Of a stretch of 60,222 nt of DNA, positions 1 through 10,910 are shown piece by piece; the stretch's first letter is position 1, and every line of letters begins with the position of its first letter. The translations under genes and the position numbers were made by a program. This DNA comes from a virus (lineage: Duplodnaviria; Caudoviricetes): IMG/VR virus record IMGVR_UViG_3300042898_005595, positions 1 through 60,222 of that record. The stretch is one strand, 5' to 3'. The notes under the pieces were generated by a model. The model was given only the letters and a program-made list of their open reading frames with translations. It made no database searches and was not told where the DNA came from.

Positions 1-18
1 TGTACCATACTAGCTTCC
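1..18 (-). tRNA. 5' end of a probable further tRNA-like gene, cut by the window edge
   Basis: Minus strand reads GGAAGCTAGTATGGTACA, 10 nt after the preceding tRNA-like gene in the cluster; no anticodon visible. Confidence 0.3.
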
Positions 19-28
19 AATCAATATG

Positions 29-109
29 TCGGCGTGACTGGAATCGAACCAGCATTTTCACTTACCAATTACCCGTAGCAATCTTATCAGGATTGAGGGT
101 TACACGCCG
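29..109 (-). tRNA. Atypical tRNA-Ile(GAU)-like gene without a normal D arm
   Basis: Acceptor CGGCGTG/CACGCCG+A, anticodon arm CAATC-CTGATAA-GATTG, T arm GCTGG-TTCGATT-CCAGT; only 7 nt between acceptor and anticodon stems. Confidence 0.6.
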
Positions 110-824
110 TTTTCTCTTCAAAATGTGTTTCCTTATGACAATTAGAACATAATAAAATACACTTATCAACTTCATTTTTTAATCTTTCAAAAGACCAAGA
201 TTTACCTGAAATGGTGAAATCTTTTTCATTTGGATCCCTATGGTGAAATTCAAGAGCATCTATACATTTTTTATATCTACATCTTTCACACTCACCACCT
301 TTATATTCTACAAGTTCAATTTTCTTTCTCCTTCTCCATTCAACTACTCCTTTTACTAATTGTTTTTTTCTTTTTTGTGAAACAATATTCATAACAGAAT
401 CTCTCGAAACATTTAGTAGTTTGGCTACCTTTCTAGTACTTTTAACTTCTTTATATGTTTCTCTTATCTTTGATTTAGTATCATTTGATATTTCAGAAAA
501 TTTCCTATTCATTATTAGTTCATATTCTCTACATATTTTTCCTATTATTGATTTCGATAGTCCTGTTATTTTTTTAATTTCTTCATAAGTTTTTAATTCT
601 TTTCTTAGTTCAATTACTTCATCAATTTTATCTGTTTCTAGTAAAAAAGAATTTGATTTTTCTTGTCTCTTATTTTTTATTTTTAAATTATTTTTTATTT
701 TCTCGTCATTATTCTCGATTTTAGAACAGTGATAAGAAATTGTGGATTTAGAACAATTTAATTTTTTAGCAATTTCATTATAACTAAATCCAAGTTTTCT
801 GAGTTCTAATATTTCTTTTTTCAT
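87..824 (-). CDS. HNH homing endonuclease with N-terminal helix-turn-helix repeats
   Basis: HTH-like repeats (FSYNEIAKKLNCSKSTISYH); C-terminal CERC..LEFHHRDP..CILLCSNCHKETH. Confidence 0.85.
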   Translation of the reverse strand: MKKEILELRKLGFSYNEIAKKLNCSKSTISYHCSKIENNDEKIKNNLKIKNKRQEKSNSFLLETDKIDEVIELRKELKTYEEIKKITGLSKSIIGKICREYELIMNRKFSEISNDTKSKIRETYKEVKSTRKVAKLLNVSRDSVMNIVSQKRKKQLVKGVVEWRRRKKIELVEYKGGECERCRYKKCIDALEFHHRDPNEKDFTISGKSWSFERLKNEVDKCILLCSNCHKETHFEEKTACNPQS

Positions 825-868
825 TTTGATTAACTTATTTTGTTAATCATATATATTAAAAATCTTTG

Positions 869-939
869 CTCCCCAGGTAGGTTACGATCCTACTTCCTAC
901 GTGTTAACAGCACGTTGCTCGCCACTGAGCTTCTGAGGA
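869..939 (-). tRNA. tRNA-Asn(GUU)
   Basis: Acceptor TCCTCAG/CTGGGGA+G; anticodon arm ACGTG-CTGTTAA-CACGT. Confidence 0.9.
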
Positions 940-952
940 ATATTTCTGTTTG

Positions 953-1025
953 TAGCTCCTGCGGGATTCGAACCCACATTCTCGCTTTAGAAGAGCGATG
1001 TCCTGTCCAGTTGGACGAAGGAGCT
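953..1025 (-). tRNA. tRNA-Arg(UCU)
   Basis: Acceptor AGCTCCT/AGGAGCT; anticodon arm TCGCT-CTTCTAA-AGCGA; GGTTCGAATCC T arm. Confidence 0.92.
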
Positions 1026-1030
1026 TTTTG

Positions 1031-1119
1031 TACCTCAGGTCGGACTCGAACCGACAGTGTTTTCCACGAGGGTGCTAGTTTCTAAAACTAGTGCGTTTCA
1101 ACCGTTTCGCCACTGAGGC
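1031..1119 (-). tRNA. tRNA-Leu(UAG)
   Basis: Anticodon arm CTAGT-TTTAGAA-ACTAG, long variable arm, canonical T arm. Confidence 0.92.
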
Positions 1120-1158
1120 ATCTTGTACCATTTTTTAAAAGGTGGTACTTCCTTTTTG

Positions 1159-1233
1159 TACTCCCCATCGGATTCGAACCGATACCTGTACAGGGTTTAA
1201 GTCTGTTGCCTCTTCCAATTGGGCTACGGGACC
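1159..1233 (-). tRNA. tRNA-Leu(UAA) with short variable arm and acceptor mismatches
   Basis: Anticodon loop CTTAAAC, T arm ATCGG-TTCGAAT-CCGAT; acceptor GGTCCCG/GGGGAGT has two G-G mismatches. Confidence 0.75.
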
Positions 1234-1237
1234 ATAT

Positions 1238-1275
1238 AAAACAAAAAACCCGAACTTCTTTCGAGGTTCGGGTTT
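1238..1275 (-). terminator. Attenuator terminator of the Leu/Arg/Asn/Ile tRNA operon
   Basis: AAACCCGAACCTC-GAAA-GAAGTTCGGGTTT then TTTGTTTT, directly before tRNA-Leu(UAA). Confidence 0.85.
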
Positions 1276-1302
1276 ATATCTTATTTGGAGTTATTTACTT
1301 CA

Positions 1303-1410
1303 TCATGAGATAAATCCAAATTTTGCACAACCCGAACCAGCGGTTCTAATACATAACGTATTCACCACCATCGTGAGATTCAAATTGATATTTAGATTCA
1401 TTGTTTTCAT
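1303..1410 (-). CDS. Leader peptide (35 aa, Asn/Leu-rich) of a tRNA operon attenuator
   Basis: MKTMNLNINLNLTMVVNTLCIRTAGSGCAKFGFIS*; contains GGTTCGGGTT, fully complementary to the terminator 5' arm. Confidence 0.75.
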   Translation of the reverse strand: MKTMNLNINLNLTMVVNTLCIRTAGSGCAKFGFIS

Positions 1411-1457
1411 TATTTCTTATATATTAAAAAGTTTATGTTCCTTTTGATTTTGTTTTA

Positions 1458-1489
1458 CAAATATATGGTGTATTTTTTACACCACCAAA
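1458..1489 (-). promoter_or_regulatory. Bacteroidota-type primary sigma promoter
   Basis: TTTG-N20-TATATTTG matches the -33/-7 consensus TTTG/TAnnTTTG; a second TATATTTG lies at 1524-1531. Confidence 0.75.
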
Positions 1490-1548
1490 TTTATTTTATT
1501 ATTTTTCTGTTTTTATTGTATTACAAATATACAATAAAGTTTTTAAAG

Positions 1549-2316
1549 TTATAGAGATATATTATTACTCTTTAAAACTTCGGCTAGAACTTCAATAGAT
1601 TCTTCTACTCTATCGTATTGAAATATTCCATTACTATTTGGCTTTGGCCAGTAGTTTATTTTCCACTCATATCTTGGATAAACATTGACTACTCTACTTT
1701 CAATATTTTTGTATTTTAAATAGTAACTAAAAATATGATCATCATGCATCGCAATCATATCGTGAAGCTTATATCCATCGATGAACATATTTACCCAATT
1801 ATATAAATCCTCATAATTTAGAATATTTGCTGGGTAAAGAACTCCACGATATCCACCTAACAAATCAACAATATGATAGTCACCATTTATAAATTCACCA
1901 TGGACAAATTTATCATCTTTAATACCCATTATTCCATATACAGAGTCACTACCACACTTATCATGAATATTTTTCAAACATTCTATAGCAGTTGGGAATA
2001 ATCCATTATCATCATCAAATATTAATATTTGATCATCAGATTGTAAGTTATGTTCCTTTAGTGGAGTTAATAGTTTAAGACAAGGTCCTATATCCTGATC
2101 ATAAAAAACTATCCTATTCTCGATAGGATAGTTTTTTAATTTTTCAGATATTTTTTCAATATCAGATTCATCTATAGACTTATTGAGTCTAGGATAAAAT
2201 CTCGATATCGAAACATATAAAAAGTCTGGAATTATTGTACTTAATAATAATTCATCAAGTGTTTTGATGAAATCATCAGTTCTATCGGGTAAAGTAATAA
2301 CAGAAGAGATTATCAT
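1549..2316 (-). CDS. GT-A fold glycosyltransferase-like protein
   Basis: TLPDR start, DIGPCLKL, IFDDD motif, GGYRGVLYP, HDD. Confidence 0.65.
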   Translation of the reverse strand: MIISSVITLPDRTDDFIKTLDELLLSTIIPDFLYVSISRFYPRLNKSIDESDIEKISEKLKNYPIENRIVFYDQDIGPCLKLLTPLKEHNLQSDDQILIFDDDNGLFPTAIECLKNIHDKCGSDSVYGIMGIKDDKFVHGEFINGDYHIVDLLGGYRGVLYPANILNYEDLYNWVNMFIDGYKLHDMIAMHDDHIFSYYLKYKNIESRVVNVYPRYEWKINYWPKPNSNGIFQYDRVEESIEVLAEVLKSNNISL

Positions 2317-2738
2317 TAAACAACTTCTAAAATTTCAATATCAAATACTAATGTCTCACCAGCCAATGGATGATTCGCATCAACTAAGATATTAGAGTCA
2401 TTTATTTCCTTAACTATAAAAGGTACTTCTTGTCCGTTCTTTAGAGTACCTTTCAATGTTTGTCCAATCACAACATTATCAGGAGCCATATTTTTAGGAA
2501 CACTAAGAATCATCTCCTGATTTATCTCACCATATCCTCTTTCTGGATCAATCTGAACAGTTTTTTTCTCACCTGGAATCATACCCAAAACAGCTTCCTC
2601 AAATCCCTGAATTAATTGACCTTCTCCAACAACAAACTCAAGAGCTGTTCTATCATCACGATATGAGGTGTCAAAAATACTATCATTAGTATATTTACCA
2701 GTATAATGTACCTTTACTTTACTTCCGTTTTTAATCAT
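2316..2738 (-). CDS. FKBP-type peptidyl-prolyl isomerase, SlyD-like
   Basis: VKVHYTG..FDTS..GEGQLIQGFEEA..YG..VDANHPLAGETLVFDIEIL. Confidence 0.92.
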   Translation of the reverse strand: MIKNGSKVKVHYTGKYTNDSIFDTSYRDDRTALEFVVGEGQLIQGFEEAVLGMIPGEKKTVQIDPERGYGEINQEMILSVPKNMAPDNVVIGQTLKGTLKNGQEVPFIVKEINDSNILVDANHPLAGETLVFDIEILEVV

Positions 2739-2790
2739 TTCTAATATTTATTTTTAATTTTATTAAAAATAATAGAATAAGTTTAAAATC

Positions 2791-3096
2791 TTAATGTTCC
2801 TGATCATCCCATTCCGTATCATCAGTATATAAATCATCTATATACAAGGATATTTCTTGATATATTTTTTCAACTTGACTATAATCAAACCATCTTGTTT
2901 CAGATTCTAATTCTTGTAAAAATCTAACAAAACTATCTGTACCTGGTTTAAACATTTCAATAAGTTCCTCCTTTGAATGCTCTGGATATTTTAAATCAAT
3001 CCACTCATGGAATATCTCAAAAAGATCTTCTTCTTGTTCAGATGGCAATCCTTGATAATCTTCTTCAAAATCTTCGTACATTTTTAAATAGTTCAT
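2791..3096 (-). CDS. Acidic hypothetical protein with CTS-like N-terminus
   Basis: ORF starting MNYLKMYEDF; TATATA motif upstream. Confidence 0.6.
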   Translation of the reverse strand: MNYLKMYEDFEEDYQGLPSEQEEDLFEIFHEWIDLKYPEHSKEELIEMFKPGTDSFVRFLQELESETRWFDYSQVEKIYQEISLYIDDLYTDDTEWDDQEH

Positions 3097-3137
3097 TACA
3101 AAAAATAATTTTAATTATATATTAAAAATAATTTTAA

Positions 3138-3401
3138 TTAATCAAGATCAAAGATCATTTTATAATATTTTCTAATGTAGTTCGGAAGTTTACCATGTTT
3201 CTCCTCACACCTTTTAAAAAGATCAGCTTGTACAATTGCATTATATTGATCTAAATTATTTGAAAAGACTTTAGTTCGTATATCGATATGTGCATCTGCA
3301 CCATCTTCACCCTTATAAGCGTCTATCAAACTTTTATAAGAACCTGATATCTTTGCAGGTAATACATTATTAGACTCGTTAAACTTTTTTAAATGCTTCA
3401 T
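3138..3401 (-). CDS. Hypothetical protein with CTS-like N-terminus
   Basis: MKHLKKFNES. Confidence 0.6.
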   Translation of the reverse strand: MKHLKKFNESNNVLPAKISGSYKSLIDAYKGEDGADAHIDIRTKVFSNNLDQYNAIVQADLFKRCEEKHGKLPNYIRKYYKMIFDLD

Positions 3402-3469
3402 ATTTTGTAAATGATTTAATTATATATTAAAAAGTCTAATTAAAAATTTCATATTTTAATATATAATAT

Positions 3470-3952
3470 ATGAAATACTTAAAACTATTTGAATCATTTG
3501 ACATAGATGAAGACGCTGAACATCTTAAAGATTTATCTTTGGATTTAAAAGATGAAGGCGAATGGAGTATAACTATTCACACAAATGTTGAAAAGTATAA
3601 TGACGATGATTATTCTACAAGAGTTATTCTTGAACCATTAGATGAATTTGATTGGGATGGTCCGGGAGTTGCCGAGGGTAATACTAAAGGTGGTAAGATA
3701 AATGATACACTAATTCAATATCTGGAAGACATTGTAGAGTATATGGAGGATTATGATTATAAAATAATAGTTGTAGGTGATGGTGATAACCCTATAACGA
3801 TCAACAGCTCACATCATGAAATAAACATAGAAAATGTTGAAGAGTTTAAAAAATGGACACAAAGAGAATTAAAATATCAAAGAAGTGACATAATGACATT
3901 TGGATTTAAAGGTGATTTAATCATTATAGAATTCTATGAAAAAGATATATAA
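3470..3952 (+). CDS. Acidic hypothetical protein with CTS-like N-terminus
   Basis: MKYLKLFESF; AATATATA directly upstream. Confidence 0.65.
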   Translation: MKYLKLFESFDIDEDAEHLKDLSLDLKDEGEWSITIHTNVEKYNDDDYSTRVILEPLDEFDWDGPGVAEGNTKGGKINDTLIQYLEDIVEYMEDYDYKIIVVGDGDNPITINSSHHEINIENVEEFKKWTQRELKYQRSDIMTFGFKGDLIIIEFYEKDI

Positions 3953-3955
3953 CAT

Positions 3956-4822
3956 ATGAAAAAATTCTCTGAGTCACAGATTTCAATTTTTGAATCTCCA
4001 GAACCTCTCGACTTTGTATCACTATTTGAAAAGATGAAAAATCTTAAGTCTTGGCTTTACACGTCAACTGGTCTTGGTATGATGTCTATAATTGATGATA
4101 TATTCAAAGAATATAATTATGAAACATCATTAAATCAAAATCAAATTGATAAGTTTAATAGAGGTGTTGAATTATTGAAAAAAACCTCAATGCCATTAGA
4201 CCACATAAATTTACGACTATCTCAAAAATTACCAGGTGGCATACAAAGTAAAAAATTAGTTTTAGATGAGAATGGCGAATGGGATTATGTCAATAAATTA
4301 AATACAAATTATTTAGATTTATCTGATCTTTTAGTTGAATTAATAAAAAGAGGATGTGATAACAACTATGAAAAGGGTAAATTAGTATATGATTCAATTA
4401 TGAATAATCCCAAACAAGGATTGTTAGAAATAAAACCATACTTAAAAAGATTAATAGTACTTTACTTTATTGAAAAGGGGAAAGGATTGGATGATTTTAA
4501 AAAATTTACGGTATATTCAAAGAAAATGTCTAAGATAGGAGAAGTAGCTGAAGATTCAGTAACAGCCTTTTTACAATCTAAAGGATTTTTAATCGCACAC
4601 TCTGGTGGAAATGGAGATTTTATAGATATGGTTTTCGGTGTTGATTTGATAATTTTTTGTCATACTAATAAAAATCCAGATCTTGTTGGATACAAAAGCG
4701 TCCAGATAAAAAATAGGATTGATGATTGGTCTAAATTAAGTTACTATAAAGTTGATATAGTAGCAGAAACAAACCCAGTAAGGTTCTATAACCTTAAAGA
4801 TAAATCTATTTTAGATCTTTAA
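3956..4822 (+). CDS. Hypothetical protein, possible C-terminal PD-(D/E)xK nuclease fold
   Basis: GEVAE..DMVFGVDLII..SVQIK pattern. Confidence 0.45.
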   Translation: MKKFSESQISIFESPEPLDFVSLFEKMKNLKSWLYTSTGLGMMSIIDDIFKEYNYETSLNQNQIDKFNRGVELLKKTSMPLDHINLRLSQKLPGGIQSKKLVLDENGEWDYVNKLNTNYLDLSDLLVELIKRGCDNNYEKGKLVYDSIMNNPKQGLLEIKPYLKRLIVLYFIEKGKGLDDFKKFTVYSKKMSKIGEVAEDSVTAFLQSKGFLIAHSGGNGDFIDMVFGVDLIIFCHTNKNPDLVGYKSVQIKNRIDDWSKLSYYKVDIVAETNPVRFYNLKDKSILDL

Positions 4823-5405
4823 TTTGGATCATCTTTCTAACAACCGTTTTCAATCCCGGATTCACCAATAGTGCCTCTGGTACAATATTGTGACGAATAC
4901 GATTTCTTGAATAATCAACACAAGAATTAGATTCATCTTCAACAAATGGTACATTTTTATTCTGACACCATTTATAAAATACTGATTTTTCATTAAGTAA
5001 GAATGGTCGAATCACATTTCCTCTAGAATAAGGAATAACCGATTGAAATCCTCTAAGACAAGAGAATAAGTAAGTCTCTACACAATCATCTAAATGATGG
5101 CAAGTAATAATAGGAAAATCAAATTGTGAGAAAAATTCATATCTCAAATCACTCCAAATCTTTTCTTTGTTAGATTTAGGACTTAAATCAGTTCTTCCAA
5201 CAAATAATTTTAAGTTATGAGTTCTACAATATTTTGTAACTAATTCTTCGGCTTTATCTCCATTTTCTGTATTATGATTGAAGTATAGAATATTAGGATA
5301 ATATCCACCATTCAATAGAAAGTTAGCAATCGCCATTGAATCAACTCCACCAGAACAAGCAAGTCCGAATTCTCCTTTTGGAATATTACCTAAAACTTTA
5401 ATCAT
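4806..5405 (-). CDS. tilS: tRNA(Ile)-lysidine synthetase, catalytic domain only
   Basis: SGGVDS PP-loop, FNH, LRY, HHLDDCVET, IRPFL, DESN..RNRIRH; likely ATG at 5405 just after TATATTTG. Confidence 0.88.
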   Translation of the reverse strand: MIKVLGNIPKGEFGLACSGGVDSMAIANFLLNGGYYPNILYFNHNTENGDKAEELVTKYCRTHNLKLFVGRTDLSPKSNKEKIWSDLRYEFFSQFDFPIITCHHLDDCVETYLFSCLRGFQSVIPYSRGNVIRPFLLNEKSVFYKWCQNKNVPFVEDESNSCVDYSRNRIRHNIVPEALLVNPGLKTVVRKMIQIKDLK

Positions 5406-5450
5406 ATACAAATATAATCAAATTATTGTAAATTTCAAGATAATTAATTG

Positions 5451-5525
5451 TGGAGCGTAAGGGAATCGAACCCTGTTTTTCAGAACAACTTGCAAAGTTG
5501 TTTGGTCACGCCTGTACAACGCCCC
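5451..5525 (-). tRNA. tRNA-Ala(UGC) with atypical D region
   Basis: Acceptor GGGGCGT/ACGCTCC+A with G3:U70; anticodon arm ACAAC-TTTGCAA-GTTGT; TTCGATT T loop. Confidence 0.7.
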
Positions 5526-5534
5526 TTTATTTTG

Positions 5535-5608
5535 TGGAGAATATCGGATTTGAACCGATTACCTTTTGTATGCCATACAAACTCTCTAGCCAACTGAGCT
5601 AATTCCCC
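5535..5608 (-). tRNA. tRNA-Ala(GGC)
   Basis: Acceptor GGGGAAT/ATTCTCC with G3:U70; anticodon arm TTTGT-ATGGCAT-ACAAA. Confidence 0.88.
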
Positions 5609-5646
5609 TGGAGCCGGACCCTGGGACTAACAGGGAGTCCTCCGGC
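5609..5646 (-). ncRNA. 38-nt tRNA-minihelix-like element ending in UCCA
   Basis: GCCGGA-GGACT-CCCTG-TTAGTCC-CAGGG-TCCGGC-TCCA, abutting G1 of tRNA-Ala(GGC). Confidence 0.5.
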
Positions 5647-5649
5647 ATT

Positions 5650-6300
5650 TTAAATATCAACTTTTTTAATAACTCTTCCTTTTATCCATCCAATACTTAT
5701 ATAATCATTTAAATCATTTTTATTAATTTTTTTATTTCCGAATTCAATATGATATATCCAACAAGTTCCATATTGAGAATTTTTCTCACCTTTTTGACTT
5801 TTAGAATTTTTTTCACCAATCTTCTTTTTCGATTCTTCTTTATGACTCTTTCCTGTCCAATCAGGTGCCTTTAAAATTCCCAATTCTCTAAGATTTCTAT
5901 TCTGTATAACCATTCTTTCTTTATTTCTTTTTCTGAATTCTGGATTATTCCAATTAATTTTATTCATTGAAATAGCAGCTTTTTTATTTTTTTCCTTTCT
6001 TAGTACAATGTTAGAATTTATTGATTCAAAACAATCACCACCTACAATTATATTATACACATCAATTCTTTTTATAAAACTCTCATTAACTATTTTTTTC
6101 TCCATTTCGTATGCCTCATTCTCACTATCTAATATAAATAATATATCCTTTACAAAATTTTCAACTCCATATTTAATTATGGCTCTTCTAATATATTTTC
6201 CACTTCCCATATAACCATCATTTATATCAGTCGTTGAGTGTTTACCTATGTAAATTTTACCATTTAAGATATTTGTAATTTTATAAATTATATGCAACAT
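5650..6300 (-). CDS. GIY-YIG homing endonuclease (Seg-like) within the tRNA cluster
   Basis: IIYKITNILNGKIYIGKH..YMGSG..YN; NUMOD3-like GKSHKEESKKKIG. Confidence 0.9.
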   Translation of the reverse strand: MLHIIYKITNILNGKIYIGKHSTTDINDGYMGSGKYIRRAIIKYGVENFVKDILFILDSENEAYEMEKKIVNESFIKRIDVYNIIVGGDCFESINSNIVLRKEKNKKAAISMNKINWNNPEFRKRNKERMVIQNRNLRELGILKAPDWTGKSHKEESKKKIGEKNSKSQKGEKNSQYGTCWIYHIEFGNKKINKNDLNDYISIGWIKGRVIKKVDI

Positions 6301-6346
6301 AACAAGAACTATTTATTTTATATATTAAATAGTTCGAGTCCTGTTA
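6299..6346 (-). promoter_or_regulatory. Hairpin occluding the endonuclease start, with TATATA in the loop
   Basis: TAACAG..GAACTATTT-AATATATAAAAT-AAATAGTTC-TTGTTATG. Confidence 0.6.
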
Positions 6347-6354
6347 CTCACAAG

Positions 6355-6425
6355 AGCAAAATGTGGGAATCAAACCCCGTCCCCACATTGGAAGTGTGGT
6401 GCTTTATCATTAAGCTACATTTTGC
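6355..6425 (-). tRNA. tRNA-Gly(UCC), apparent 8-bp acceptor and 4-nt T stem
   Basis: GCAAAATG/CATTTTGC+T; anticodon arm CCACA-CTTCCAA-TGTGG. Confidence 0.75.
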
Positions 6426-6430
6426 TTATG

Positions 6431-6504
6431 TTGGTGAGGTGGGTAACGATCCCACTATCTTGTGTGTATAAGACACATGCTTCTACCGTCTAAGCTACTC
6501 ACCA
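6431..6504 (-). tRNA. tRNA-Ile(UAU)
   Basis: Acceptor TGGTGAG/CTCACCA; anticodon arm TGTGT-CTTATAC-ACACA; T loop ATCGTTA. Confidence 0.85.
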
Positions 6505-6541
6505 AAATAAAAAAACCCAGTCAATTTTCATCGACTGGGTT
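6505..6541 (-). terminator. Attenuator terminator of the Ile/Gly/Ala tRNA operon
   Basis: AACCCAGTCGAT-GAAA-ATTGACTGGGTT then TTTTTATTT. Confidence 0.88.
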
Positions 6542-6568
6542 AAGTTTTTTAGTTTTTAATATTATAAT

Positions 6569-6655
6569 TTAAAAACTTTTTGACATAACACAGTCATTGA
6601 CACCCGCTCCCGCGCCGCCTCCGATTATTGCTATTGTTATGTTTAAAGTTTTCAT
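6569..6655 (-). CDS. Leader peptide (28 aa, Ile/Gly/Ala-rich)
   Basis: MKTLNITIAIIGGGAGAGVNDCVMSKSF*; ATAx3, ATC, GGA GGC GGC GCG GGA GCG GGT. Confidence 0.85.
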   Translation of the reverse strand: MKTLNITIAIIGGGAGAGVNDCVMSKSF

Positions 6656-6716
6656 TTTATTCTATTTTTAATTATATTATTATATATTAGAAAAGTTTTC
6701 TTTCCTAAATTTTTTG

Positions 6717-6799
6717 TTGGAAGAGAGGGATTCGAACCCCCGTACTCCGAAGAGATTTGATTTACAGTCAAACGCATTTAGCCACTCTGCCACCTTCCA
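6717..6799 (-). tRNA. tRNA-Tyr(GUA)
   Basis: Anticodon arm TTTGA-CTGTAAA-TCAAA, long variable arm, GGTTCGAATCC. Confidence 0.92.
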
Positions 6800-6808
6800 A
6801 TATTTTTG

Positions 6809-6879
6809 TAGCCCGTAGGGGTAACGATCCCCTCTTTTTTGGTTGAAAACCAAGAGTCCTTCCTCTAGACGAACGGGCC
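6809..6879 (-). tRNA. tRNA-Glu(UUC)
   Basis: GGCCCGTTCGTCTAG..GGAC; anticodon loop TTTTCAA; T loop ATCGTTA. Confidence 0.88.
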
Positions 6880-6885
6880 AATTTG

Positions 6886-6959
6886 CACTCTTGACGGGAA
6901 TCGAACCCACATCTACATCGGTCTGAGAAACCGGAGTCCTACCGTTAGACGACAAGAGC
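6886..6959 (-). tRNA. tRNA-Glu(CUC)
   Basis: GCTCTTGTCGTCTAACGGTAGGAC; anticodon loop TTCTCAG; GGGTTCGATTCCC. Confidence 0.88.
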
Positions 6960-6965
6960 ATTTAG

Positions 6966-7036
6966 TGGGATAAGAGAGAATCGAACTCTCGTAGCTATGT
7001 TTTACAGACATTCTTGGTTGCCCTGACCTTTATCCC
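6966..7036 (-). tRNA. Atypical tRNA-Tyr(GUA) with short variable arm and odd D arm
   Basis: Acceptor GGGATAA/TTATCCC+A; ATGT-CTGTAAA-ACAT; GAGAG-TTCGATT-CTCTC. Confidence 0.7.
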
Positions 7037-7042
7037 AATTTG

Positions 7043-7116
7043 TACTCTTGACGGGAATCGAACCCGCATCTACATCTGTTTGAAAAACAGGAGTCCTACC
7101 GTTAGACGACAAGAGC
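7043..7116 (-). tRNA. tRNA-Glu(UUC)
   Basis: Near-duplicate of 6886-6959 with anticodon loop TTTTCAA. Confidence 0.88.
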
Positions 7117-7131
7117 ATTTACAATATATTT

Positions 7132-7168
7132 AAAACAAAAAACCCAGTCAATTTGATTTGACTGGGTT
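7132..7168 (-). terminator. Attenuator terminator of the Glu/Tyr tRNA operon
   Basis: AACCCAGTCAA-ATCAAA-TTGACTGGGTT then TTTTGTTTT. Confidence 0.88.
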
Positions 7169-7195
7169 ACTTGTGTTTTTAGTTAATATTTTATA

Positions 7196-7276
7196 TCAAC
7201 TTTTCACAGACATAGTATCTCCAGTCGCTGAGTGTTCTTCATACGCTTCATAATAATATGTTGTTACAGTTGTCAT
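7196..7276 (-). CDS. Leader peptide (26 aa, Tyr/Glu-rich)
   Basis: MTTVTTYYYEAYEEHSATGDTMSVKS*; TAT TAT TAT GAA GCG TAT GAA GAA. Confidence 0.85.
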   Translation of the reverse strand: MTTVTTYYYEAYEEHSATGDTMSVKS

Positions 7277-7311
7277 GATTTCTTTATTTTAAATTGTTCT
7301 ATTTTGTTTTA

Positions 7312-7342
7312 CAAATATACGGAGATTTTTTAAACCACCAAA
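7312..7342 (-). promoter_or_regulatory. Bacteroidota-type promoter driving the Tyr/Glu leader
   Basis: TTTG-N19-TATATTTG. Confidence 0.78.
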
Positions 7343-7361
7343 TATTTGTAAAACTTTTTTG

Positions 7362-7433
7362 TAGCGGGGGGTGGAATCGAACCACCGACCTTTAGGTTAT
7401 GAGCCTAACGAGCTGCCTCTGCTCTACCCCGCA
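7362..7433 (-). tRNA. tRNA-Met(CAU), initiator-like
   Basis: TGCGGGGTAGAGCAG..AGCTCG, anticodon arm TTAGG-CTCATAA-CCTAA, 1:72 mismatch; own TATATTTG at 7451-7458. Confidence 0.88.
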
Positions 7434-7538
7434 ATATTTAGTATATATTACAAATATACTTCTTTGTTTTAATTTTTTTAATATATAATTTTATAATTAA
7501 CTTTTTTTTATTATATTTGTAAAACAAACAACAGAACT

Positions 7539-7886
7539 ATGACAAATTTCCTATCAATAGATGAACGTAATCAAATTGAGAAAGCAAAGGCTGAAATTAA
7601 GTCAGAACTATCTCGATTAAGAAACAAAATTAATAATTTTGTAGGTATTGAAATATTTACTTTTATTCTAACACTTTCATATCTCAATAATCAATCTTTT
7701 CTATTTGATACCAATCCAATTGTTGCATGGTCAATCCTTACAGGATTAGTCCTATTTCAAGTTATTCTAGTAATGGCCACACGAGTGGCTCTATACAATT
7801 GGAATACTAACCAACGTGTATTAGAGATTTATGACATGTCAGACGAAGAGTTTGACAGAAAATTCAAAGAATTCTGTGAAAAATAA
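7539..7886 (+). CDS. Two-TM membrane protein
   Basis: Two hydrophobic segments; TATATTTG at 7512-7519. Confidence 0.7.
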   Translation: MTNFLSIDERNQIEKAKAEIKSELSRLRNKINNFVGIEIFTFILTLSYLNNQSFLFDTNPIVAWSILTGLVLFQVILVMATRVALYNWNTNQRVLEIYDMSDEEFDRKFKEFCEK

Positions 7887-7919: not shown

Positions 7920-8345
7920 TTAATTAGTTGAATCAACTAAGATATCATCTTCATCGGGAAGATCAAAAACTTCTTCATCATCTTTATCAACTTCATTATA
8001 GAGATTTTTGATGAAGTTTGGTGCAGGAACTTTTGCTGTTTTAAAATCTACTAAACTTGGAACTGTTGTTCTAAAAGTAGATAAAAGATAAACTACACTC
8101 CAAACAAAATTTAAATCTTTTAAACATAGTAGAGAGAATACTACTGGAACTAAAATTGGAGAGAATGCTACTAGTCGAACTTGAGTTAGAGTGTTAAGGT
8201 TAGAAATATAAATCCTAACACAGTCAAGTCTCTTGATACGGATCTTATTAATTCTACTGAAAAGTAGAAGAGCAACAAGTATATGTGATAACTCGTGTAG
8301 AACAAGAGCGGGTAAACACCAGATATTTTTATAGAATTTAATCAT
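7920..8345 (-). CDS. Membrane protein with HExxH motif (zincin/M50-like)
   Basis: LVLHELSHILVA..VAFSP. Confidence 0.6.
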   Translation of the reverse strand: MIKFYKNIWCLPALVLHELSHILVALLLFSRINKIRIKRLDCVRIYISNLNTLTQVRLVAFSPILVPVVFSLLCLKDLNFVWSVVYLLSTFRTTVPSLVDFKTAKVPAPNFIKNLYNEVDKDDEEVFDLPDEDDILVDSTN

Positions 8346-8403
8346 GTCTATATGTTGTTTGTTTTACAAATATATGAAAAAAAATGATTAATAAAAAAAT
8401 TAT

Positions 8404-8826
8404 TTAGGTGTTTTGTAAAATTTTTAGGTCAATATCATCAAGAGAATCTCTACCATATTCATTAATTTTATCTAACACATCATCAGTATTTAAATTTTGA
8501 ATACGGATTTGATCAATACTCCATTTAAAAATTTCGTTGTACTTATAAACTCGATGTAGAAGAGGATCAACATCAATCATCTTAACAACTGATTGAGTGA
8601 TATCTGTATAAGAAAAAGAAACACCTTCAGAAACTAATTTTGAAATATATTCATTAGTTTTCTGAGGTGTTTCAGTTAAAAATATTATGTGTCTCTTTCC
8701 TTCTGTTGGAGTTAATCCCCAAGATTGAAAATCTCTTTGATCGATTTCACAATCTTTAGCAATCATTTCAAACTTAAAGACGACCAATCCAAGTGTGTTA
8801 GTGATTCTTTTATTTTCCGGAAGCAT
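8404..8826 (-). CDS. Hypothetical protein with C-terminal rhomboid-tail-like (DUF6576-like) motif
   Basis: DDVLDKINEYGRDSLDDIDLKIL. Confidence 0.55.
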   Translation of the reverse strand: MLPENKRITNTLGLVVFKFEMIAKDCEIDQRDFQSWGLTPTEGKRHIIFLTETPQKTNEYISKLVSEGVSFSYTDITQSVVKMIDVDPLLHRVYKYNEIFKWSIDQIRIQNLNTDDVLDKINEYGRDSLDDIDLKILQNT

Positions 8827-9871: not shown

Positions 9872-10219
9872 ATGAACAGACCAGAGGTTAGAATAATACA
9901 AGACCAACAAGAAGAGATTAAACCAGCTGATATTTCACAAAATGAAGCTGAAATGCTTCTTGCTAGATATGGTTATGCATCACAACCACAATCTTACCAA
10001 CCTACTCAAAATAATGGATTAACATTTGAGGAAATGATAAGATTACAAGAACAAGAAAATCAACAAAGATTACAAGAACAAATGAAAAAAGTTAATGGTC
10101 CAAAACCATATACATTTGGTGGTAATTACGATACAAATACTGTGTATGGAACAGATGATGGATTCACTTTTAAAGTAAATATAGTAAGTGATATGCCACT
10201 ACCAAAAAGAGATTATTAA
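9872..10219 (+). CDS. Gln-rich hypothetical protein
   Basis: ORF track. Confidence 0.6.
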   Translation: MNRPEVRIIQDQQEEIKPADISQNEAEMLLARYGYASQPQSYQPTQNNGLTFEEMIRLQEQENQQRLQEQMKKVNGPKPYTFGGNYDTNTVYGTDDGFTFKVNIVSDMPLPKRDY

Positions 10220-10220
10220 T

Positions 10221-10910
10221 ATGAAACACATTAAATCATTTCAAAAACACAATGAAGAAATTAGTTTAAAAGGAGTCTTAGCAACAGGAGCCGTAATTGG
10301 TGGTCTTGCCACTGGAGGTGCTTATTTACATGATAAAAATATTGAACCTAAAGAGATTGTGCAATCAAACCATGTTGATATACCAAACTCTTTCCAATTA
10401 AAAAAGAAAATTCTTTCTATTGGAACAGATATGTATATCACAAATGATAATAGAGATAATTTTGGAAAAATAGAAGAAAGAGTCTTATCTTGGGGGAAAA
10501 CTTTCCAATACTATGATAATACTGGGAAGATATTATCAACTGCTAAACAAGAGGTATTCAGTTTTGGAACTAAAATTAATATCACTAATGAAAATGGTCA
10601 AAAAATTGGTTCAGTAGAACAGGAAATAATTGAGTCTATGTTTTCACTACACTCGATTTATAGTATAAAAGATGAAAATGATGAAGTAATTGCTACTTCA
10701 AAAAAACTAGACTTCTTCACATCATATGTTGATATTTTTGATGTATCAGGTAAATTTGTAGCAAATTTTGATCAGAGAGCATTTACAATAGCAGATAAAT
10801 GGAATTGTAAGATTGAATCAACACCAATTGATAAAAGACTAATAATATTCATACCATCTTTTGTATCATCAGCACAATCTGATAAAAGAGAAAAAGAAGG
10901 AAAAAAATAA
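10221..10910 (+). CDS. LURP-one/scramblase-like protein with N-terminal hydrophobic helix
   Basis: MKHIKSF start; repeated KKILSIG/ERVLSWG/QEVFSFG beta units. Confidence 0.6.
   Translation: MKHIKSFQKHNEEISLKGVLATGAVIGGLATGGAYLHDKNIEPKEIVQSNHVDIPNSFQLKKKILSIGTDMYITNDNRDNFGKIEERVLSWGKTFQYYDNTGKILSTAKQEVFSFGTKINITNENGQKIGSVEQEIIESMFSLHSIYSIKDENDEVIATSKKLDFFTSYVDIFDVSGKFVANFDQRAFTIADKWNCKIESTPIDKRLIIFIPSFVSSAQSDKREKEGKK

Follow-up and report, generated by a model that had tools for sequence, protein, structure and literature searches.

The window analysed here is the whole 60,222-nucleotide (nt) contig IMGVR_UViG_3300042898_005595 (Caudoviricetes) of an uncultured lake phage, which has a G+C content of 28.7% and carries phage-type replication and nucleotide-metabolism genes for a ribonucleotide reductase, a family B DNA polymerase, a helicase, a TROVE protein and a PP-loop ATPase. 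ARAGORN finds 13 transfer RNA (tRNA) genes within its first 7.5 kilobases (kb), every one on the minus strand, and the Rfam tRNA model adds two matches to these. Part of this region, 7276-6716 on the minus strand, contains a short open reading frame (sORF) crowded with Tyr and Glu codons, an intrinsic terminator and five tRNA genes for Glu or Tyr, and every component of this Tyr/Glu unit lies on the same strand. The initial annotation had read the arrangement as a Tyr/Glu attenuator. Our analysis supports that reading, in that each of its sequence-level predictions is borne out in the unit and relatives agree, and we consider it likely that the region is a ribosome-mediated (leader-peptide), trp-style transcription attenuator gating the five phage tRNA genes.

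The leader open reading frame (ORF; 7276-7196) begins with an ATG at 7276-7274 and closes with a stop codon at 7198-7196, giving 26 codons plus stop. Its regulatory codon run (region 1; codons 7-14, 7258-7235) consists of three TAT codons, GAA, one Ala codon, TAT, GAA and GAA, so that Tyr and Glu take seven of eight consecutive codons, with the four TAT and three GAA that had been described from the sequence. Among the 120,402 six-frame windows of eight codons in the contig, just one holds at least seven Tyr/Glu codons, and it is the leader run; mononucleotide shuffles gave a mean of 0.02 such windows, and Tyr plus Glu make up 11.9% of codons across the long ORFs of the contig. The run immediately precedes the only Glu and Tyr tRNA genes of the contig. 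Leaders in this contig also use GC-rich codons that are otherwise scarce in it (GCG, 6% of Ala codons; GGC, 3% of Gly codons), at 7244-7246, at 7226-7228 and in a second leader at 6655-6569; this is consistent with RNA pairing, the downstream anticodons or both having limited which codons could be used.

The tRNA block behind the switch comprises tRNA-Glu (UUC; 7116-7042; Rfam, 55.5 bits), a non-canonical tRNA with a GUA (Tyr) anticodon (7036-6966), tRNA-Glu (CUC; 6959-6885), a further tRNA-Glu (UUC; 6879-6808) and tRNA-Tyr (GUA; 6799-6716) with a long variable arm. Both ARAGORN and Rfam report these genes, apart from the one at 7036-6966, which ARAGORN missed; it scores 32.8 bits with the Rfam tRNA model (cut-off 29), has a 5-nt variable loop and carries its GUA anticodon in the anticodon loop as aligned to the model. 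The statement that all five downstream tRNAs are Glu or Tyr holds, with this one non-canonical member. An ARAGORN-negative GUA tRNA-like gene of similar kind lies directly after the Tyr/Glu terminator in the uncultured phage LR745206.1 (locus L001, about 8375-8445, plus strand).

About 36 nt 5' of the leader ATG lies a promoter-like site of the Bacteroidota type (7341-7312), with TTG at 7341-7339, a 19-nt spacer and a -7 box TAnnTTTG at 7319-7312, which may act as the leader promoter. PMC7641319 describes conservation of this -7 box consensus across Flavobacterium and Bacteroides. A contig-wide pattern scan for promoters of this type gave seven minus-strand matches, one of them ahead of a sister unit, at 1488. 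The gene for tRNA-Met (CAU; 7361-7433, minus strand; ARAGORN and Rfam) sits 5' of the leader promoter-like site, hence outside the switch, and is likewise placed in LR745206.1 and in several IMG/VR contigs. The promoter consensus, together with the phylum of related huge phages, which we take to be assigned to Bacteroidota, suggests that the phage infects Bacteroidota hosts.

The intrinsic terminator (7168-7131), recovered twice, by an independent scan and by a purpose-written finder, begins 24 nt 3' of the leader stop and ends about 21 nt ahead of the first tRNA. Its stem (7168-7158 with 7151-7141) has 11 base pairs (bp), five of them G-C, and encloses a 6-nt loop ahead of a T-tract; the hairpin alone has a predicted energy of -16.4 kcal/mol. 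The 5' arm of the terminator is also predicted to pair upstream in an antiterminator hairpin (7226-7160), where the GACTGG hexamer, which we place at 7226-7221 as the free 5' strand, pairs with its CCAGTC partner at 7165-7160, accompanied by two inner helices, and where the apex overlaps the stop codon. The three antiterminator pairings named in the initial annotation are exactly those found in the minimum free energy (MFE) fold of 7230-7155 (-20.2 kcal/mol, z = -5.62), and none of 200 shuffles was equally stable. For a transcript that ends short of the terminator 3' arm, this antiterminator is the MFE structure. Blocking 30 nt around the stop codon in the fold model, to mimic a terminating ribosome, abolishes it, in agreement with the earlier proposal that a ribosome at the stop melts the helix.

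A protector (anti-antiterminator) helix (7272-7197) is predicted as well, in which the Tyr/Glu codon segment 7264-7239 pairs with 7231-7206, including the antiterminator 5' strand. The MFE fold of the whole leader (-36.2 kcal/mol, z = -4.41; 0 of 200 shuffles equally stable) comprises the protector and the terminator, and region 1 is predicted to hold 7 of the 11 nt of the antiterminator 5' strand in it. In the fold models, the leader has three mutually exclusive helices in textbook order, namely protector 1:2, antiterminator 2:3 and terminator 3:4. The duplex between the leader and the terminator 5' arm was stronger than in dinucleotide shuffles (z = -3.82), and in a swap test the leader paired with its own arm at -13.6 kcal/mol versus -4.8 kcal/mol for foreign arms, none of the 10 foreign arms equalling its own. 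The leader ORF, test-codon cluster and terminator expected of an attenuator at the sequence level are all present in the unit, as are the predicted antiterminator and protector helix.

The Tyr/Glu stretch is present in 24 metagenome runs, all of DNA (lake, freshwater, estuary). A leader ORF nearly identical to that of the window occurs in the phage contig L018, and related ORFs occur in at least 12 further phage contigs. Four DNA runs were examined for population variants, and contigs from three of them carry a variant, identical to the L018 leader, in which leader codons 4 and 5 are changed (codon 5 to Glu) and one GAA is replaced by GAG; the variant retains the Tyr/Glu run, and its downstream structural part is unaltered. 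The anatomy of the unit, its statistical support and its conservation are shown by the sequence analysis.

Two sister units with their own leaders lie in the same contig, both on the minus strand. In unit B (6655-5450), Ile (mostly ATA), Gly and Ala codons abound in the leader, and the tRNAs behind it are Ile(UAU), Gly(UCC), Ala(GGC) and Ala(UGC). The leader of the Asn/Leu/Arg unit (1410-868) is rich in Asn and Leu, includes one AGA codon and precedes tRNAs Leu(UAA), Leu(UAG), Arg(UCU) and Asn(GUU). The Asn/Leu/Arg unit has a 10-bp antiterminator with a shuffle z of -5.3. The description of the Tyr/Glu unit as the cleanest of the three is accurate for codon density but not for the antiterminator, where its z of -3.8 compares with -5.3 in the Asn/Leu/Arg unit. 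No terminator was found between the Tyr/Glu tRNA block and the leader of unit B, so read-through from the Tyr/Glu unit would enter the switch of unit B.

The correspondence between leader and tRNA block was analysed across relatives. An IMG/VR terminator-pattern scan provided 118 loci, which were analysed, together with LR745206.1 and the window, by ARAGORN and a purpose-written terminator and sORF finder; this yielded 39 units with the order sORF, terminator and tRNA block, containing 35 distinct leaders from about 25 phage contigs. In the main matching test, the longest candidate sORF was picked blindly and the expectation was derived from the proteome of the window. Over the 35 distinct leaders, 310 of 1001 residues were amino acids of the downstream tRNAs, compared with 160.8 expected, and permuting the leaders among units 10,000 times never gave as many as 310 (mean 162, maximum 230). 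Locus L015 and unit B, for which the longest-sORF choices mismatch the tRNA sets (0/34 and 8/40 residues, respectively) and differ from the sORFs used in the codon-level test, were counted as misses.

Leader composition shifts with the tRNA set across about 10 different classes. These include a Gln-rich leader before three Gln tRNAs, a Ser/Arg-rich leader before Ser/Arg tRNAs, a His/Lys/Phe/Trp-rich leader before tRNAs for the same four amino acids, a Pro/Gln/Lys/Tyr/Thr/Gly-rich leader before a matching tRNA set, a Lys/Tyr-rich leader before Lys/Tyr tRNAs and an Asn/Leu-rich leader before Asn/Leu/Arg blocks; at locus L084, a fused Tyr-Glu-Ile-Gly-Ala tRNA block stands behind one leader in which each of these five amino acids is abundant. 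The match extends to codons. Those readable by the downstream anticodons exceeded expectation for Ala (14/14, 7.2 expected), Ile (21/32, 11.5 expected), Arg (9/11, 3.9 expected), Thr (17/19, 9.0 expected) and Val (3/3, 1.0 expected), and the leaders of sister units match at the level of isoacceptors, with AGA accompanying Arg-UCU, CGN accompanying Arg-ACG/GCG and ATA accompanying Ile-UAU.

Leaders of differing amino-acid classes share similar Thr/Ile/Asn-rich first seven residues (the window, L001-L112 and L150-L152), many of them finish in a similar Met/Ser-rich tail coded by a conserved stretch right before the stop, and the same terminator stem occurs in most units. Since the first seven residues, the tail and the terminator stem are shared, this pattern suggests that the units are paralogous and that most of their divergence lies in the test codons.

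This correspondence bears on what the switch would sense. The same switch might respond to starvation for the amino acids Tyr and Glu and not to tRNA supply, and the helix anatomy is compatible with either signal; leader-peptide attenuators sense charged tRNA and cannot separate a lack of tRNA from a lack of amino acid, as in trp and his. However, the regulated genes are tRNAs, and extra tRNA gives no relief from starvation, while sister leaders list up to six or more amino acids and mirror their tRNA sets down to the isoacceptor, for which amino-acid sensing offers no rationale. We regard amino-acid starvation as an improbable signal.

The upstream pairing of the terminator arm was assessed in the relatives sequence by sequence. 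When 11 Tyr/Glu leaders were aligned, their starts, Tyr/Glu codons and terminators came into register, but the antiterminator region was too gappy for counting pairs, so duplex, shuffle and swap tests were run on each sequence. Duplexes between leader and terminator 5' arm had a mean z of -2.36 against dinucleotide shuffles; in 18 of 36 units, no more than 5% of shuffles paired as strongly. When arms were swapped between units of different stem sequence, the own arm paired at -11.0 kcal/mol versus -7.7 kcal/mol for foreign arms (Wilcoxon p = 5.8e-7). In 29 of 35 units, 5 nt or more of the terminator arm are predicted to pair upstream in the truncated transcript; folding of the full transcript gave the terminator, also in 29 of 35. 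The pairing segment mostly lies about 6-25 nt past the test codons, at the stop or up to about 25 nt before it, with outliers in both directions.

These results, and those on leader content, count against another account, in which the hairpin is a constitutive terminator of the tRNA-Met transcript, the sORF is fortuitous or encodes an unrelated peptide, and the tRNAs arise from leaky read-through or from another promoter (e.g. 7151-7123). A sigma-70-like match (10/12) does lie at 7151-7123 on the minus strand, where it shares sequence with the terminator 3' arm and stops 7 nt short of tRNA-Glu. In principle, it could support tRNA transcription independently of the switch, a point that also weighs against the attenuator. 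However, sigma-70-like matches in the contig are no commoner than chance (51 vs 46.7 in shuffles), the host-type promoters here are of another kind, and sister units have no such match at that place. The promoter-like site of the leader itself lies 3' of tRNA-Met, and a Tyr/Glu run unique in the contig stands exactly ahead of its only Glu/Tyr tRNAs. Leader content moreover covaries with tRNA identity over 35 units, to a degree matched by none of the 10,000 permutations, and the complement to the terminator arm is backed by the shuffle and swap controls. We hold a constitutive terminator to be very improbable.

A third account would dispense with translation, the element being an RNA-only or factor-binding switch (T-box-like, or a protein-dependent antiterminator) around an untranslated ORF; the alternative helices do exist regardless of whether the leader is translated. 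However, an Rfam search of 1-7700 with E values up to 1 returned no T-box (RF00230), known leader family or riboswitch. Weak Rfam matches to small RNA and small nucleolar RNA models were below the gathering score and were dismissed as chance. The matching codons stand in the frame of the sORF in all 35 units, which were selected for a candidate ATG-to-stop sORF, and leader lengths among orthologues differ by whole codons. This account seems to us extremely improbable.

The closest public record, found by BLAST of the tRNA block against phage records, is LR745206.1, an uncultured phage of 635 kb with 74.8% identity over 56% of the query. Matches to Pseudomonas, Vibrio and others reflected plain tRNA similarity and were rejected, leaving LR745206.1 as the only real relative. 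It has 61 tRNA-model matches, and all seven of its multi-tRNA blocks, in four regions, open with a terminator preceded by a leader in the amino acids of the block, a count that leaves out three isolated tRNA matches elsewhere; three scattered tRNAs at 419.8-421.6 kb have no leader-terminator unit. A cultured phage, Cellulophaga phage phi4:1 (NC_021788.1; host C. baltica), contains three candidate units (7124-7255, 8084-8229 and 10176-10339; locus L153), and two of the leader ORFs are annotated as the hypothetical proteins gp075 and gp076. The first phi4:1 leader has 11 consecutive Gln/Arg/Leu/His/Glu/Pro codons before Pro-Glu-Gln-His-Leu-Leu-Arg tRNAs, the second closely matches the next 11 tRNAs, and the third candidate is weak and lacks a clear terminator.

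Cellular genomes served as the control. A terminator pattern followed by a same-strand tRNA within 200 nt was found for 24 of 163 matches in viral contigs and for none of 146 cellular matches, the latter drawn from 120 loci of bacterial and archaeal genomes. At the starts of cellular tRNA clusters, a terminator-like hairpin was present just upstream in 2 of 39 cases and a candidate sORF in none of the 39.

As a leader-peptide attenuator, the Tyr/Glu unit would operate as follows. Transcription would start from the Bacteroidota-type promoter, and the 26-codon leader would be translated as RNA polymerase proceeds. With charged tRNA-Tyr and tRNA-Glu ample, the ribosome would reach the stop and melt the upper antiterminator, whereupon the terminator at 7168-7141 would form and the tRNA genes would stay off. 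If the leader were not translated, the protector helix would sequester the antiterminator strand, and termination would likewise be expected. Slow decoding of Tyr or Glu codons would instead stall the ribosome on 7258-7235 and break the protector helix; the freed 7226-7221 strand would then pair with 7165-7160 ahead of synthesis of the terminator 3' arm, and polymerase would go on to transcribe the Glu/Tyr tRNA genes and then enter the next unit. Because the tRNA products read the test codons, the switch would exert negative feedback on the Tyr/Glu tRNA pool.

Several observations weigh against this interpretation. Leader translation, transcription-translation coupling, stalling, termination and regulated read-through are steps that we infer from the sequence. 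Placing a ribosome on the Tyr/Glu codons in the fold model leaves the terminator state as the thermodynamic minimum (-32.4 to -28.5 kcal/mol), so antitermination would have to be kinetic; in classical attenuators, the decision between terminator and antiterminator is accepted as kinetic. The antiterminator strand starts 8 nt past the last Glu codon (7237-7235), and a stall at that codon would mask about two of the six free-strand nucleotides. The proposal that a ribosome stalled in the run leaves GACTGG free consequently stands for the Tyr codons and the first two Glu codons, which would be the better-placed sensors, and holds only in part for the last Glu codon. The leader codes Glu by GAA alone, and one downstream tRNA (CUC) reads GAG.

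Among the relatives, too, some units depart from the pattern. Of 27 distinct Glu/Tyr run starts with sufficient upstream sequence (five more lacked it), just 16 carry the full design of a Tyr/Glu-rich leader, a GC stem and a T-run, and some of the other 11 appear to lie mid-block, after inserted genes or after tRNAs that ARAGORN missed. The antiterminator test was failed by 6 of 35 units, locus L027 has a terminator with no matching leader and no codon match, and codon-level enrichment in the leaders was absent for Gly (30/49 vs 29.1 expected). The family statistics are further limited in that the loci were chosen via one terminator pattern, many units are related by descent and the finders are heuristic.

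The predicted mechanism is shared with the enterobacterial leader-peptide attenuators trpL, hisL, pheL and leuL and the multivalent thrL and ilvL/ivbL, in which a short leader with a run of test codons and three mutually exclusive helices lets ribosome position decide, and with thrL and ilvL it shares the sensing of several amino acids through one leader. It differs from them in that the phage switch governs tRNA genes and not biosynthetic enzymes, so that the product itself reads the test codons, and in that the element is phage-encoded, behind a Bacteroidota-type promoter, with each tRNA block having its own leader in its amino acids. Closer in purpose is the Escherichia coli attenuator of pheST (phenylalanyl-tRNA synthetase) with its pheM leader, where leader-peptide attenuation likewise controls a component of the translation apparatus by decoding of cognate codons; unlike the phage unit, pheST attenuation regulates a synthetase, senses one amino acid and is cellular. 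T-box riboswitches also couple the state of a specific tRNA to terminator read-through, but they bind uncharged tRNA directly via a specifier codon and need no translation, whereas the phage element has a complete ORF with many test codons. Because the genes behind the switch are five tRNA genes and not genes for amino-acid biosynthesis or a synthetase, we do not file the unit within a described attenuator family.

To our knowledge, attenuation has been described only for amino-acid biosynthesis and synthetase genes. A full-text literature search on attenuation or leader peptides and (phage) tRNA genes, judged by titles and abstract openings, gave no account of leader-peptide attenuation of tRNA genes. 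With this unit, tRNA genes would join amino-acid and synthetase genes as targets of leader-peptide attenuation. The unit also bears on the long-standing question of why phages carry tRNA genes, for which the usual explanations are that the genes match codon usage, replace a host pool in decay or evade defences that cleave tRNA. If the interpretation is true, these phages measure and correct tRNA supply block by block, and their leaders would be a ready-made list of the codons that each phage "worries about". The same design in a cultured pair, Cellulophaga phage phi4:1 on C. baltica, makes the idea directly testable.

A broader scheme, which we put forward tentatively and consider possible rather than probable, is a genome-wide "codon checklist" network with one leader per tRNA block, in which the phage would sense limiting host tRNAs and switch on the matching replacement block, an inducible counter-defence read by ribosome speed. 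Under such a scheme, host tRNA limitation could come from anti-phage anticodon nucleases or from decay of the host pool after shut-off, and the non-canonical GUA tRNA (7036-6966), conserved in LR745206.1, could serve as a nuclease-resistant replacement.

Other genes are interspersed with the tRNA blocks. A GIY-YIG ORF in 5650-6300 (minus strand; Pfam, 24.4 bits vs a cut-off of 22.6) occurs within the Ile/Gly/Ala tRNA block, where it separates Gly(UCC) from Ala(GGC), and looks like a homing-endonuclease insertion; the tRNA blocks of the relatives L012 and L048 are interrupted by HNH-like ORFs. The PP-loop ATPase gene at 4806-5411 (minus strand; Pfam ATP_bind_3, 107 bits) sits just past the tRNA block that includes Ile(UAU), and ATP_bind_3 is the family of tRNA(Ile)-lysidine synthase N-terminal domains. 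Near the contig end, a tRNA-like sequence at 29-109 (minus strand), with an Rfam score of 30.2 bits, barely above the cut-off, overlaps the end of ORF 824-87, whose Pfam matches are to helix-turn-helix families only.

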